64,000 nucleotides of DNA from an uncultured Alphaproteobacteria bacterium (GCA_944390835.1 CALXQT010000010.1:583-64582); one strand, 5' to 3'; positions 56,865 to 61,241 are shown, counted from the stretch's first letter. A program made the numbers and translations. The notes: generated by a model from the letters alone, not told the origin.

Positions 56865-58061
56865 ATGAAAAAACTAACCGCAAGTATATTTGCAACATTA
56901 TTGACGGTTGTAACTGTCGGCGCCGCTAACGCGGATATCGCATCCAGTGGGTATGTAGATACAAAAGTTGGTGAAGTAAGTGCTAAAGTTGCGACAAAAG
57001 CTGAACAATCAGATCTTACAGATTTGGAAGGGACTGTAACAACTTTGTCTGGAACGGTTTCTGGACACACAACTTCTATCGCTAATTTGGAAACAAATAA
57101 AGCTGATAAAACAGCATTATCTGCTTACGCGACAACGGAAAGTGTAACATCTGGTTTGGCGGGGAAGCAAGATAAAGCCCTGATTACATCTACACAATAT
57201 GGAACAAATAAAACGAGTGATACATCGTATCCATCTGTAAAGGCGGTCGCGGATGCAATTACAGCTGCAACAGAAAATATTGCAAGCAGCGATACTGTTT
57301 CCGCATTGGGTACTCGTGTAACAACGGCAGAAGGTGATATCACAGCCTTAAAGGCTCGTATGGATACAGCAGAGTCTGATATTGCAACAGTAGAAGGTAC
57401 AGTAGGCACAGCAAGTGCGAATGCTACTCAGGCGTTGAATAATATTGGTACGTTAAGTCAATTGACGACAACCAAGAAAGATAATACAGTTAATGCGATC
57501 AATGAAGTTAAGACTGCGGCTGATAATGCAGCATCTGCAGCATCGACAGCACAAGGCGCAGTTACAACTTTGACTGGTCGGGTTGGTAAGAATGAAACAA
57601 ATATTTCGGCGTTGCAAAGTGGCAAGTTAGATGTTGGTGGTACTGCAGCAAAAGCAACAGCGGATGCCGCCGGTAATAACATTGTTGATACATATGCAAC
57701 AAAAGCTCAAATAGCAAATATGGCAACAGAGGAAAATCTGAATTTGAAGCAGGATAAAACAGATAATTCTCTGGCCACAACGGCTAAGACGATTGTTGGT
57801 GCTATCGGCGAAGTAAAAACAACGGCTGATGATGCTTTAGCCGATGCGGCGACAGCACAGGCAGATGCTACACAGGCAATCTCTGATGCAGCGACAGCGA
57901 AGGGTGTGGCAGATGCAGCACAGAGCACAGCTAATCAGGCCAAGACAACTGCTGATGCGGCTATCCCAAAACCAAGTGCGGACCAGATCAACTCTAATGG
58001 CGTATATGTTTTGACCTTTAATGGTACAAATGGTTATGCGTGGGAAACAATTACTCGTTAA
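56865..58061 (+). CDS. Fibre protein 3 (exported, tail-fibre-like boxes)
   Basis: Signal ..GAANA/DIASSGYVDTKV. Boxes SYPSVKAVADAI, NTVNAINEVKTAAD, TIVGAIGEVKTTAD. Ala/Thr-rich coiled-coil-like stalk. 398 aa. Confidence 0.8.
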   Translation: MKKLTASIFATLLTVVTVGAANADIASSGYVDTKVGEVSAKVATKAEQSDLTDLEGTVTTLSGTVSGHTTSIANLETNKADKTALSAYATTESVTSGLAGKQDKALITSTQYGTNKTSDTSYPSVKAVADAITAATENIASSDTVSALGTRVTTAEGDITALKARMDTAESDIATVEGTVGTASANATQALNNIGTLSQLTTTKKDNTVNAINEVKTAADNAASAASTAQGAVTTLTGRVGKNETNISALQSGKLDVGGTAAKATADAAGNNIVDTYATKAQIANMATEENLNLKQDKTDNSLATTAKTIVGAIGEVKTTADDALADAATAQADATQAISDAATAKGVADAAQSTANQAKTTADAAIPKPSADQINSNGVYVLTFNGTNGYAWETITR

Positions 58062-58098: not shown

Positions 58099-58157
58099 GG
58101 ATGTAGGGTATAAATGTGTTAATGTAAACAGTAAAACGATTGGATAGAAATAGGGCT

Positions 58158-59795
58158 ATGATAAAGTTAAAAGAAATTTTTTCAGTTTCATTTATAGCAC
58201 TGTCAATTTGCAGTGTGGCACATGCAGATATCGCATCTACTGGTTATGTTAACCAGCAATTGAGTGGGCGTCTGTCTTCAATTTCTGCTTCTAGTAGTGG
58301 GACGGGTAACGTTGTTACTTCCATTTCTGCCAGTGGCGGGACTGTTACTGCAACTAAAGGGATAAATGCGGAAGTTACTTCCAATAAGACAACGTCTATC
58401 GCAGCATCAACCAGCGCCAGTGATACAAAGTATCCATCTGAAAAGGCGGTCAGGACCGAATTAGATAAGAAAGCAGATATTGATGATGTGCCAGCGGCAA
58501 TTACTGTTGATTCTGCTTTAAACTCAACAAGTACAAATCCTGTCCAAAACAAAGTTATAAATACTGCTTTGGCGGCTAAACAAAACGCAAGTACTGCGGT
58601 TGAAGTCGCTTCAGCTGGTACTGCCGTTGGTAGCGCAAGTCAGCCTGTTTATGTCGATAATACCGGGGTAGTGCGTGCGGCAAATTCAATTCCAACTGTA
58701 AATAATGCAACGTTAACTATTCAAAAAAATGGTTCTGATGTCGGAACGTTTACTGCAAATGCTTCTTCGCCGGCAACAATTAATATAACGGTACCTACAA
58801 CAACATCTCAATTGACTAATAACAGTGGGTTCATTACAGCTGATGATTTACCAGAAGATTATGTTTTAACTGCTGCTACTGCAACTGCGTTGGGTGGTGT
58901 TAAAAGTGGAGGCGATATAGAGGTTGGAACTGACGGTACAGTAACTGTTAATAGTGCGAATAGCGCAGATAGTGCAACTAAAGCGACTCAAGATGGGAAT
59001 GGGAATACTATTTCATCTACGTATACAAAAATTGCACAAGGTTCTACTAATGCTAACAAGGCTGTTATAACAAATGCATCTGGTAATATTACAACAGGTA
59101 CTATAACAAGTGCTATGATTACAGATGGTACCATAACAAATGCTGATATATCTTCGTCTGCAGAAATTGATCAATCAAAGATTTCAGGATTATCAACCGC
59201 ATTGGCGGCAAAGGTAGATTCTACAGATTTAGCGGAAGTTGCAAAAACAGGTTCATATAATGATCTGACCAATAAACCAACGATTCCAACCGCGATTACA
59301 GTTGATGCTGCCTTGAGTTCAACAAGTACAAATCCTGTTCAAAATAAAGTTATTAATACTGCATTGGCGGCAAAACAAAATGCAAGTACTGCCGTTGAAG
59401 TTGCCTCAGCTGGGACTGCTGTGGGTAGTGCAACTCAACCTGTTTATGTCGATAATACTGGTGTAGTGCGTGCGGCAAATTCAATTCCAACTGTAAATAA
59501 TGCGACTTTGACCATTCAGAAAAATGGCTCGTCTGTTGGTACGTTTACCGCAAATGCCGCAAATGCCGCAACGGTAAATATTACTGTGCCGACTAAAACT
59601 TCTGAATTAAGTAACGATAGTGGTTTTGTTACTTCGGCGCAACTTAATGCGTTGGATAGTACGTCTTCTGGGAGTGGTGCCGTTGTTACAGAGGTTGCAC
59701 AGGTAAATGGTAAGGTTACTGTTACAAAAGGTAATGTTCAAATACCTGTTGGTAGTGCTACTGCCACTACATATGCTACTATTTGGGTAGAATAA
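58158..59795 (+). CDS. Fibre protein 4 (exported; contains a ~114-aa internal duplication)
   Basis: Signal ..SVAHA/DIASTGYVNQQL. Boxes KYPSEKAVRTEL, STNPVQNKVINTALAAK (x2), GSYNDLTNKPTIPT, (T/S)N(N/D)SGF(I/V)T. Start is 58158 ATG or 58140 TTG. Confidence 0.8.
   Translation: MIKLKEIFSVSFIALSICSVAHADIASTGYVNQQLSGRLSSISASSSGTGNVVTSISASGGTVTATKGINAEVTSNKTTSIAASTSASDTKYPSEKAVRTELDKKADIDDVPAAITVDSALNSTSTNPVQNKVINTALAAKQNASTAVEVASAGTAVGSASQPVYVDNTGVVRAANSIPTVNNATLTIQKNGSDVGTFTANASSPATINITVPTTTSQLTNNSGFITADDLPEDYVLTAATATALGGVKSGGDIEVGTDGTVTVNSANSADSATKATQDGNGNTISSTYTKIAQGSTNANKAVITNASGNITTGTITSAMITDGTITNADISSSAEIDQSKISGLSTALAAKVDSTDLAEVAKTGSYNDLTNKPTIPTAITVDAALSSTSTNPVQNKVINTALAAKQNASTAVEVASAGTAVGSATQPVYVDNTGVVRAANSIPTVNNATLTIQKNGSSVGTFTANAANAATVNITVPTKTSELSNDSGFVTSAQLNALDSTSSGSGAVVTEVAQVNGKVTVTKGNVQIPVGSATATTYATIWVE
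58497..58838 (+). repeat. Internal direct repeat, copy A (pairs with 59292-59633)
   Basis: Encodes AITVDSALNSTSTNPVQNKVINTALAAKQNASTAVEVASAGTAVGSASQPVYVDNTGVVRAANSIPTVNNATLTIQKNG... Confidence 0.9.
59292..59633 (+). repeat. Internal direct repeat, copy B (795 nt downstream of copy A)
   Basis: Near-identical protein sequence to copy A. The DNA differs mostly at third-codon positions. An identical 41-bp core gtagtgcgtgcggcaaattcaattccaactgtaaataatgc is present in both copies. Confidence 0.9.
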
Positions 59796-59804
59796 GAACT
59801 AAAC

Positions 59805-59838
59805 AAAATCCCCGTTCTGGGGATTTTAATTTTTTGTT
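59805..59838 (+). terminator. Rho-independent terminator after the fibre array
   Basis: aaaatcccc-gttct-ggggatttt hairpin plus T-run. Confidence 0.85.
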
Positions 59839-59847
59839 TTATAAAAC

Positions 59848-59877
59848 TTGATTTGACTTATTTCAGTATAATATAAT
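59848..59877 (+). promoter_or_regulatory. Candidate promoter TTGATT-N18-TATAAT for the structured leader/PAP2 gene
   Basis: ttgatt at 59848-53. tataat at 59872-77. Confidence 0.45.
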
Positions 59878-59884
59878 TCAATTG

Positions 59885-60086
59885 CTTTTAAGGGTTCTTA
59901 AAAGTGGACCATGTTAGTAGACGGGTTTAGTCACCCGAATATAACAGTTTTAACTAACTTGTTCTCCCGATGTCTTAGTCGGGAAGTCGTTGTTATACAA
60001 AAACTGCTTCGCGGTAAAGGCAACGAATTCATCGTTATATTTGAATGACTAACTTCCCGACACCTACTTTCATAGGTGTCTTTTTT
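59885..60086 (+). promoter_or_regulatory. Structured ~200-nt leader ending in an intrinsic terminator, upstream of the PAP2 phosphatase gene (candidate riboswitch or attenuator; class not recognised)
   Basis: Hairpin 59885-59904. 18-position long-range stem 59928-45/60034-51. Segment 59978-87 is perfectly complementary to 60052-61 (pseudoknot/antiterminator) and alternatively pairs with 59965-70. Terminator 60059-60086. Confidence 0.45.
60059..60086 (+). terminator. Intrinsic terminator inside the PAP2 leader
   Basis: gacaccta-ctttca-taggtgtc hairpin plus tttttt, 29 nt before the ATG at 60115. Confidence 0.8.
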
Positions 60087-60114
60087 CTTGTTTTTTTCAC
60101 ATAAGGATAAAAAT

Positions 60115-60669
60115 ATGAAAGTTTTTTTGTCGGGATTATTACTTTTTTGTTGGGTTTTGTTTCCTAGTAATCTTTTTGCTGGTAACTTCATCGCAGATGC
60201 AGGTGATTTCATTTCTTTTAAAATCTTACCAGTGTATTCTTTCGCAGCAACTGTTTATAACTCTGATTGGGATACTTGGTATGATTATGATTGGAACGGG
60301 TTAAAGCAACTGATTGTGGTTAATTTAATTAAATCCACTGTAACTGATACGATCAAAGAAAATGTTTCTGAGCAAAGGCCTAATAAAATGGGATTCGACA
60401 GTTTCCCGTCTGGGCATACTGCAAACGCTTTTGCAAACGCTGCTTTCATTCATAGACGTTACGGTATTAAACAGGCAATCGTTCCGTATGTATTAGCTTC
60501 GTTCGTTGGATATTCCAGAGTTCAATCAAGGTGGCATTATACTCATGACGTATTGGCTGGTGCCGCTATCGGTTTTTTATCTGCTTGGATATTCGCGGAA
60601 AGAAAGCAGAATGTTTTTATCGCTGCTGATACAGAAAGCGTTGCCCTGCGATTCAGTACTGTATTTTAA
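60115..60669 (+). CDS. PAP2-superfamily acid/lipid phosphatase (exported)
   Basis: RBS taaggat. Signal peptide. Motifs KENVSEQRPN (KX6RP), PSGH and SRVQSRWHYTHD (SRX5HX3D). Confidence 0.8.
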   Translation: MKVFLSGLLLFCWVLFPSNLFAGNFIADAGDFISFKILPVYSFAATVYNSDWDTWYDYDWNGLKQLIVVNLIKSTVTDTIKENVSEQRPNKMGFDSFPSGHTANAFANAAFIHRRYGIKQAIVPYVLASFVGYSRVQSRWHYTHDVLAGAAIGFLSAWIFAERKQNVFIAADTESVALRFSTVF

Positions 60670-61241
60670 AATAATGATATCAGAAATATCCCAAGAGCTG
60701 CTGCCACTATCGCACCGATAGTTAAAGGCCAGAAATATTTTTTTACTATCGCGTTCGCGCGTTCTTGGAAAAAGTATAATAATGTCGCAACTATTATAAA
60801 ACGACCTGTGCGGAATATCGCGGATATACCCAAAAATATCCATATTGGATAACCAATAAAACCAAGCCATAAGGCTAATAATTTATATGGTATAGGGGTT
60901 ACCGCAGTCAGCACAATAATCAGTATTCCATACTTGCTGAACATTGGTTTAATCGCTGTTTCTATTAATTCGGGATTAGAAAATGTATTTATTAGCCAAA
61001 TGCCCAATGAATCCCATAACCATGCACCTATCATATATGCGATTGCACCACCAACTATTGAACCCAACGCCACCGCTATTGTGATTGGTACTGCACGTTT
61101 TTTATTCGCAATTATGGGCGGTGTCATAAATACTTCTGGTGGAATAAATAAAAATATTGATTCGAATACCGTCAGAATAAAAACAACCCATGAATATGCG
61201 CGACTTTCCGATTTGCTTAATATATATTCTGCAAATTTCAT
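60666..61241 (-). CDS. YqaA/DedA-type (VTT-domain-like) inner-membrane protein
   Basis: 191 aa. ..FESIFLFIPPEVFM.. and ..GSIVGGAIAYMIG.. pattern. Convergent with the PAP2 gene, with a 4-nt overlap. Confidence 0.6.
   Translation of the reverse strand: MKFAEYILSKSESRAYSWVVFILTVFESIFLFIPPEVFMTPPIIANKKRAVPITIAVALGSIVGGAIAYMIGAWLWDSLGIWLINTFSNPELIETAIKPMFSKYGILIIVLTAVTPIPYKLLALWLGFIGYPIWIFLGISAIFRTGRFIIVATLLYFFQERANAIVKKYFWPLTIGAIVAAALGIFLISLF

Follow-up and report, generated by a model that had tools for sequence, protein, structure and literature searches.

A pseudoknotted leader with an sRNA-Xcc1-type core and an overlapping intrinsic terminator, a candidate transcription attenuator, precedes a PAP2 phosphatase gene in an uncultured gut alphaproteobacterium

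The DNA analysed here is a stretch of 64,000 nucleotides (nt) from an uncultured Alphaproteobacteria bacterium (GCA_944390835.1 CALXQT010000010.1:583-64582), hereafter called the window, and the element in question is the leader that lies upstream of a gene for a PAP2-family lipid phosphate phosphatase. The genus name used for this organism and its relatives, Candidatus Enterousia, was taken from related records; it designates an uncultured gut alphaproteobacterium of the order Rs-D84 with genomes below 1 Mb (PMC12306168). The original prediction had described the leader as an unclassified structured element, a candidate riboswitch or attenuator. The PAP2 protein has a hydrophobic N-terminus and only a weak LpxE-like match (40 bits versus a cut-off of 177), and its gene is presumably the one regulated by the leader. 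The parts of the locus, all on the plus strand, are the following.

59848-59877 (+), sigma-70-type promoter: TTGATT at 59848-53, an 18-nt spacer and TATAAT at 59872-77, with a predicted start near 59884
59885-59892/59897-59904 (+), perfect 5' hairpin of 8 base pairs (bp), CTTTTAAG-GGTT-CTTAAAAG, kept in the orthologues L073-L076
59922-59937 (+), hairpin Hb by direct sequence reading: stem CGGG/CCCG, loop TTTAGTCA
59927-59933 (+), box b1, TTAGTCA, in the Hb loop, pairing with the junction strand 60046-60052 (pseudoknot PK1)
59938-59945 (+), box a1, AATATAAC, pairing with the hairpin-2 loop at 60034-60041 (pseudoknot PK2)
59965-59970 (+), decoy TCCCGA, pairing with 59979-59984 of the P1 5' strand (hairpin 59965-59984)
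59978-59986 (+), P1 5' strand, GTCGGGAAG, of the stem that closes the three-way junction
59987-60026 (+), hairpin 1: basal stem 59987-92/60021-26, apical stem 60003-07/60011-15
within 59987-60026 (+), conserved internal loop of hairpin 1, TTATACAAAAA / AAAGG
60027-60046 (+), hairpin 2: stem ATTCA/TGAAT, loop 60032-41
60034-60041 (+), box a', GTTATATT, inside the hairpin-2 loop
60046-60052 (+), junction strand J2/1, TGACTAA (box b'), which pairs with the Hb loop
60053-60061 (+), P1 3' strand, CTTCCCGAC, ending in the 3 nt (GAC) with which the terminator stem begins
60059-60098 (+), intrinsic terminator, GACACCTA-CTTTCA-TAGGTGTC (60059-60080), followed by T6-C-TTG-T7
60103-07 and 60115-17 (+), Shine-Dalgarno sequence AAGGA and PAP2 start codon ATG, by direct reading
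60115-60669 (+), PAP2-family lipid phosphate phosphatase of 184 amino acids (aa), Pfam PF01569, E = 4e-18

Most of these parts had been recognised in the original prediction. The promoter and the 8-bp hairpin were found where they had been placed, the 10-nt segment was verified to pair perfectly (59978-59987 with 60052-60061), its alternative partner TCCCGA is present, and the terminator shares the 3 nt GAC between its 5' arm and that segment, about 29 nt before the ATG at 60115. The proposed long-range helix of 18 positions was also recovered, since 16 of 19 positions (84%) are complementary between 59927-59945 and 60034-60052; it is, however, not a single helix but two, 59927-33/60046-52 and 59938-45/60034-41, split by local stems. 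The pseudoknot geometry was likewise borne out with its roles exchanged, because the 10-nt pairing that had been taken for the knot is the closing stem P1 of a three-way junction, and the long helix is the pseudoknotted part. The minimum free energy (MFE) of the leader has a z-score of -4.6, and none of 200 shuffled sequences was as stable. Judged by its predicted folding, the leader at PAP2 is a structured, pseudoknotted, terminator-containing cis element, beyond what would be expected by chance.

A scan of 59700-60300 (601 nt) against Rfam placed sRNA-Xcc1 (RF02221) at 59978-60069, in full length, with 37.0 bits and E = 7.6e-5, whereas the curated gathering score of this family is 53 bits; in the scan of the whole window there was no match at gathering threshold. 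The alignment covers model positions 1-87 and includes P1, hairpin 1 with its AUACAA / GAA-type loop, and hairpin 2, the AUACAA/GAA internal loop being the most conserved part of Rfam sRNA-Xcc1 as well. The core of the leader is, as far as this alignment indicates, a diverged relative of sRNA-Xcc1. The earlier statement that the leader fits no riboswitch consensus held, as no credible riboswitch family was found in the 59700-60300 scan (the sole one at E <= 10, SAM-V, lies outside the leader, with 17.2 bits and E = 4.5), but the leader is not wholly unmatched in Rfam, although the match stays below the gathering score and belongs to a family whose mechanism is not established. The weak resemblance to ydaO (cyclic di-AMP) elements was not recovered, there being no ydaO among the Rfam matches listed at E <= 10. 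The Rfam matches other than sRNA-Xcc1 were discarded as noise or as lying on a neighbouring terminator.

The sRNA-Xcc1 family is known from Xanthomonas campestris, where it accumulates as an 88-nt RNA (PMC2996969), from integron cassettes upstream of symE, from the APSE phage upstream of an ORF6N gene, and in multiple copies from Xylella. The leader shares with it the three-way junction, the closing stem of 9-10 bp, hairpin 1 with the AUACAA/GAA loop, hairpin 2 and the single-stranded junction, and, with the classical loci of the family, an upstream hairpin whose loop and flank can pair with the junction strand and the hairpin-2 loop. It differs in its score, which is 37 bits at PAP2 and 23-51 bits in most copies from relatives where 53 is required, and in its setting. 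At classical loci, target boxes accompany the start codon, a genome has 1-6 copies and a strong terminator is missing, whereas the Enterousia leaders have no start-codon boxes, carry a terminator overlapping P1, reach 51 copies per genome and stand before chromosomal surface genes. What is found here is an sRNA-Xcc1-type core in a new regulatory configuration, in which the core family was already known and the arrangement is new; full-text searches on sRNA-Xcc1 and on Enterousia yielded no description of this leader family, and the leader-RNA papers listed for Rs-D84 were all unrelated.

The extent of this family became visible through structure models. A blastn search of the leader sequence against its own 816-kb genome returned a single occurrence, and a genomic repeat or mobile element was rejected because the sequence is single-copy by blastn and the other copies are detectable solely by a structure model. 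With RF02221, a search of 40 related genomes gave sub-threshold matches in 17, up to 13 in one genome. A covariance model of the junction and terminator, built from 15 copies, found 510 copies in 40 of the 41 genus genomes sampled, 1-51 per genome with a median of 12, the maximum occurring in G019, a 1-Mb genome. This model scored the PAP2 leader at 91.6 bits (E = 5e-18), and the source genome holds three copies, namely the PAP2 leader, C25:5677-5799 and C46:4329-4471. The order was the same in every copy examined: a TATAAT box (6-10 nt 5' of the first hairpin in the copies inspected), a 5' domain of about 120 nt, the junction, the terminator, a ribosome-binding site and a start codon on the same strand. 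In the PAP2 leader, the 5' hairpin at 59885-59904 takes the position of the GGGA-tetraloop hairpin Ha of most family members. Most of the downstream proteins start with a signal peptide, and the genes headed by the leader include a YadA-anchor adhesin, an outer-membrane beta-barrel, porins and large paralogous fibre-like families, as well as GT2 and GT8 glycosyltransferases, an EcoRI-like methyltransferase and PAP2. Orthologues of PAP2 share 63-93% protein identity; the leaders of those with 79-93% identity are nearly invariant, boxes included, while compensatory changes among orthologous PAP2 leaders were seen in the hairpin-1 apical stem and in the terminator (CCTA/TAGG versus CCTG/CAGG). 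Two more distant PAP2 genes are without the leader.

Some copies of the family have peculiarities of their own. The copy at C46:4329-4471 has matching boxes and P1, there is no U-tract, and the hairpin after P1 includes the Shine-Dalgarno sequence (CCATCTTT...AAAGGATGG), so that this copy may be a translational instead of a transcriptional variant. In G019, the locus L081 (G019:C4:150-782) has two tandem leader copies about 516 nt apart, each before an open reading frame (ORF) of 66 aa (MGLKLYNGKKNQRSL...) that lacks a signal peptide. In the same genome, a leader copy is located about 50-180 nt from the end of each of the contigs C3, C6, C13 and C32 (L084, L090, L093, L110), three of which break off 118-177 nt inside the downstream gene. 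Assemblies apparently break in the repeated region of leader and signal peptide, and the copy numbers of draft genomes are therefore lower bounds.

The structure was supported by helix statistics on 89 copies aligned to the covariance model, and, even though an alignment fitted to the model favours pairing, the margin was large: 93.9% of the junction and terminator helix cells were paired and 27 of the 31 pairs had double changes. Shuffling never reached the observed pairing values (0 of 500), and slid controls paired at 31-50%. P1 (helix 1) was paired at 95%, with double changes at 7 of its 10 pairs; in hairpin 1 (helices 2 and 3) all 12 pairs had double changes, and the pairing of hairpin 2 (helix 4) and of the terminator stem (helix 5) was supported, the latter covarying as well. 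The abundance of G-U pairs, together with the constant orientation toward the gene, indicates a strand-specific structure at the RNA level.

The two pseudoknots follow a copy-specific code. For PK1, the exact complement of the junction core was found in the Hb loop of the same copy in 92% of 63 copies, and in only 1.4% of comparisons across copies with a different code, 20 codes being present. For PK2, the complement of the hairpin-2 loop, at no fewer than 8 of 9 positions, was found in the copy's own 5' domain in 78% of cases and in 4% across copies (p = 2e-4). These comparisons relied on ungapped and word tests, as long RNAduplex comparisons are uninformative because of over-extended duplexes. 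The Hb stem also covaries locally, as in L071, where it is GGAG/CUCC. Since the boxes are copy-specific and Hb covaries on its own, the continuous "rod" seen in MFE folds is a nested-only approximation of two pseudoknots, both of which can coexist with the junction. Diversity within a single genome is high: among the 41 copies fetched from G019, 12 different junction codes combine with 31 different hairpin-2 loops in 40 ways. In addition, the alignment-free similarity between nearest neighbours was 0.70 and 0.77 for the boxes, compared with 0.73 for an unconstrained loop, 0.86 for the terminator and 0.92 for a hairpin-1 stem. Being near the value of the free loop, the boxes change about as fast as free loops, yet they stay complementary. 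Such divergence is compatible with selection for mutually orthogonal leaders, and does not prove such selection.

The anatomy, covariation, conservation and genomic arrangement are observed; from them it may be inferred that termination is conditional and that the state with P1 closed is the ON state. The leader is interpreted, with a confidence somewhat above even, as a transcription attenuator acting in cis from its own promoter. According to this interpretation, bases from about 59884 to 60092 would constitute the leader of the PAP2 messenger RNA and would fold into an sRNA-Xcc1-type three-way junction (P1, hairpin 1 with its AUACAA/AAA loop, and hairpin 2). Pairing of the Hb loop with the junction strand, and of the next 8 nt with the hairpin-2 loop, would tether this junction to the RNA's own 5' part. 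The P1 5' strand would then choose between the upstream decoy TCCCGA and the P1 3' strand. When the decoy hairpin forms, P1 is excluded, as both engage the same strand; the full terminator would arise and end transcription about 29 nt short of the PAP2 start codon, with an RNA of about 205 nt as the product. When P1 closes, the terminator would lack basal pairs near the U-tract and the polymerase would read into PAP2.

Several features of the family support this attenuator. A decoy, defined as a run of at least 6 nt complementary to the P1 5' strand and at most 30 nt upstream of it, was found in 92% of 79 copies, with a mean of 8.1 nt, and it covaries with P1 in other genera of the order (L035, L038, L041, L028, L029). 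The terminator stem has a mean length of 8.2 bp in the family. In 82 of 84 distinct copies its 5' arm and the P1 3' strand have 3-6 nt in common, with a mode of 4 and with 3 (GAC) at the PAP2 leader, and at its 3' end the terminator reiterates the bases with which the P1 5' strand begins. At PAP2, the layout is that of an intrinsic attenuator, with a G+C-rich hairpin and U-tract just upstream of the gene and no promoter between; in the family, the T-run and the start codon are separated by a median of 26 nt, too short an interval to accommodate another promoter, so that the gene would depend on read-through. Presence of Rho in 21 of 21 genomes led to the rejection of Rho loss as the cause of the intrinsic terminator. 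The mutually exclusive pairings of the original prediction were supported, the element is conserved with covariation in relatives and not catalogued as such, and an attenuator-type reading is the best fit. Its companion proposal, translation-coupled attenuation, did not survive: the 45-codon ORF at 59911-60048 is present, and its frame is interrupted by in-frame stops in all six orthologous PAP2 leaders (L073-L078), for which reason a leader-peptide attenuator was rejected.

The energies of the two states were compared with P1 forced on one side and the P1 3' strand kept free on the other, and their difference, E(P1 closed) - E(decoy + terminator), was -0.3 +/- 3.4 kcal/mol over 83 copies, either state being favoured in about half of them. 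For the PAP2 leader the values were -33.0 with P1 closed and -33.5 with decoy and terminator, and for the whole leader -39.9 and -41.6 kcal/mol, respectively. With so small a difference between the two states, the choice could be tipped by a modest input, such as a ligand, a protein, the speed of the polymerase or a processed copy of the same RNA. Some points weigh against the attenuator. The pseudoknot energies were left out of these calculations; a state with P1 shortened by 3 bp and the full terminator is about as stable, at -40.7 kcal/mol for the whole leader; with an overlap of only 3 nt and this shortened-P1 state coexisting, the exclusivity would be kinetic at best, or would require additional stabilisation of the junction; and the classical relatives of the core, judged by architecture, would act as antisense RNAs and not as attenuators. 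In addition, the G-rich Shine-Dalgarno sequence is a possible pairing partner of the C-rich P1 3' strand in many copies. This is not so at the PAP2 leader, where the sole downstream partner of that strand is UGUCGGGA in codons 5-7, lost in more distant orthologues.

The classical relatives deserve attention in their own right. RF02221 was found at or above its gathering score in 41 of 301 Pseudomonadota genomes, with 1-6 matches per genome, and the downstream gene is often Bro/KilA/Rha antirepressor-like (loci L124-L147, in other Pseudomonadota). At L130, L141, L142, L139 and L144, a second copy of both boxes flanks the Shine-Dalgarno sequence and AUG of the downstream gene, as in CGAAAA-GGAG-AATAGTAGC-CATG at the start region of L130. 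Parsing loops from MFE folds left only 4-11 usable classical loci, and a parse-free repeat test was used for this reason; in this test, the 5' domain resembled its own start region (16.9) more than those of other loci (14.3, p = 2e-4), with no signal in the coding control. This pattern, read from sequence, implies a C4-like immunity role for the classical sRNA-Xcc1 loci, and in the full-text papers searched on sRNA-Xcc1 neither a mechanism nor such a role was found described. One classical sRNA-Xcc1 copy has, about 1.3 kb away in the same locus, a c4-2 RNA (RF02944, at L127:2890-2958) with a sub-threshold score of 34.8 bits, an arrangement similar to the clusters of C4, isrK and sRNA-Xcc1 reported in Xylella (PMC12189769).

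These relatives raise the question of whether the PAP2 leader could itself supply a stand-alone antisense RNA, the junction being released, for example by RNase P-type processing together with the terminator, so that its two boxes pair over the ribosome-binding site of the downstream gene. The C4 antisense RNA of phage P1 controls icd/ant by such pairing, and in the immI region of phages P1 and P7 the order is a1 b1 - c4 - a2 b2 - icd/ant. By architecture the leader resembles C4, as a structured RNA co-transcribed upstream of a gene with two short boxes setting specificity, and it possesses upstream boxes a1 and b1 complementary to loops (59927-33/60046-52 and 59938-45/60034-41). The match of its core to sRNA-Xcc1, the second boxes and the repeat signal of the classical loci, the 88-nt species in Xanthomonas and an AAUAUGA over the PAP2 start codon, which by direct reading can pair with 7 nt of the hairpin-2 loop, all speak for such an antisense function. 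However, the downstream boxes a2 and b2 are absent, no sequence or model match to the C4 clan was found over the element, nor did any C4-clan Rfam model overlap a copy of the family, and the route of C4 is a translation block plus Rho, not an intrinsic terminator. In the start regions of Enterousia, the hairpin-2 loop code was found in 3% of own versus 2% of cross comparisons (p = 0.18) and the junction code in 6% versus 5%; there was no enrichment of box complements anywhere within 1 kb downstream of the leaders, and the parse-free repeat test gave p = 0.23. Additionally, the AU-only match of 7 bp at the PAP2 start is lost in the orthologues L074-L076 even though the loop is invariant. Trans targets were rejected, since a genome search yielded no other site matching both boxes exactly, and so was an Hfq-dependent small RNA, because none of 21 relatives has Hfq. 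P1 is followed by ACCU at the PAP2 leader and, in roughly one half of the family, by GCC, with which GCCA begins, from which it follows that a CCA-like tail is not conserved. As the start-region tests are negative in Enterousia and positive in the classical loci, C4-type downstream silencing fits classical sRNA-Xcc1 and not the PAP2 leader, for which it is rather unlikely. The PAP2 leader is better described as keeping the self-complementary half of a C4-like design and having gained a terminator.

The same junction could instead be the aptamer of a true riboswitch, with its invariant AUACAA/AAA loop binding a global signal, for instance a second messenger, that stabilises P1 and governs a set of surface genes. 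This would suit the aptamer-plus-terminator layout, the conserved unpaired nucleotides of hairpin 1, the near-isoenergetic states, the many copies per genome before adhesin, porin and glycosyltransferase genes, and genomes that lack Hfq and CsrA. A comparable arrangement exists in the multi-copy cyclic di-GMP (c-di-GMP) riboswitches of Geobacter and Clostridioides, and the leader shares with c-di-GMP-I (GEMM) leaders the mutually exclusive helices touching an intrinsic terminator and the many copies before surface and adhesion genes. It departs from terminator/antiterminator riboswitches by a terminator overlap of only 3-6 nt, by two hypervariable copy-specific pseudoknots and by matching no riboswitch model, SAM-V outside the leader being the only one listed at E <= 10. 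The leader-headed genes share no metabolite, and the same junction occurs elsewhere in prophage antirepressor cassettes with antisense target boxes, a context that needs no ligand. A PAP2-related metabolite is weighed against by the homology of the core to antisense-type prophage and integron RNAs, the unrelated surface genes and the two hypervariable copy-specific helices; the heterogeneous genes and the prophage antisense use argue against a pathway metabolite and not against a global signal, and a riboswitch of this kind is considered rather improbable. Quite unlikely is a constitutive portable promoter-leader cassette without switching, which would provide a fixed low read-through, upstream insulation and/or a stable 5' end or processing site. 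Promoter, leader and terminator do move together before unrelated genes, the state combining P1 minus 3 bp with the terminator is as stable as the others, and the C46 copy is without a U-tract; but the decoy, conserved in 92% of copies and covarying with P1 across genera, would be useless to a fixed element, and the energy balance near zero over 83 copies looks tuned. As for protein regulators, the 5' hairpin of most copies (ACAGGGAUGU), which resembles the CsrA consensus obtained by systematic evolution of ligands by exponential enrichment (SELEX), is suggestive of a CsrA site; this candidate was rejected because no CsrA gene scored above the cut-off in 31 genomes and because the loop at PAP2 is GGUU.

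Within the attenuator interpretation, the hypervariable pseudoknot boxes could serve as addresses: a released junction RNA would bind matching boxes on nascent transcripts of its own locus and shift the terminator decision. This extension, drawn by analogy with the sRNA-Xcc1 of Xanthomonas, is speculative and must be rated as improbable.

Regarding the surroundings of the locus, the fibre gene and the leader promoter are separated at 59804-59838 by a hairpin that resembles a bidirectional terminator, AAAATCCCC-GTT-CTGGGGATTTT, either strand of which has a T-run, and weak Rfam matches to Phe_leader and rimP sit on it. Downstream, a gene for a DedA/VTT-domain membrane protein (60666-61241, minus strand) is convergent with PAP2, the stop codons overlapping by 4 nt (TTAA, 60666-60669), and no terminator lies between the two genes. 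The combination of a lipid phosphatase with a DedA neighbour suggests the handling of a lipid carrier or of lipid A. Upstream, two tandem genes for fibre-like surface proteins (56865-58061 and 58140-59795) encode signal peptides and a common N-terminal ADIAS(S/T)GYV motif, which is similar to the ASI(V/I)SRGF start of the large leader-controlled paralogue family of G019; the second contains a near-identical internal repeat of about 100 aa, and neither gene has a copy of the leader.

If the address reading is true, each surface-protein gene would have a private RNA feedback loop, an RNA-based locus-specific on/off memory. A host-associated bacterium poor in regulators and devoid of Hfq and CsrA would thereby possess a kind of phase or antigenic variation. 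If the attenuator reading is true, an antisense RNA module of the phage and integron type would have been rebuilt as a portable cassette of promoter, leader and terminator, standing before as many as about 50 transcription units in a 1-Mb genome, mostly for adhesins, porins and enzymes that modify glycans or lipids. At the present locus, this suggests that a periplasmic, weakly LpxE-like lipid phosphatase is co-regulated with the surface proteome. Additionally, sRNA-Xcc1, which has been in Rfam for more than a decade without a mechanism, gains a concrete hypothesis: in classical loci, both a site upstream and the start region of the antirepressor-like gene downstream are able to pair with its junction strand and hairpin-2 loop. 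Under the attenuator reading, few known cis-regulatory RNA families would be as dense as these leaders, which belong to uncultured gut symbionts with a very small set of protein regulators, and they would be a pointer to how such symbionts control their cell surface.

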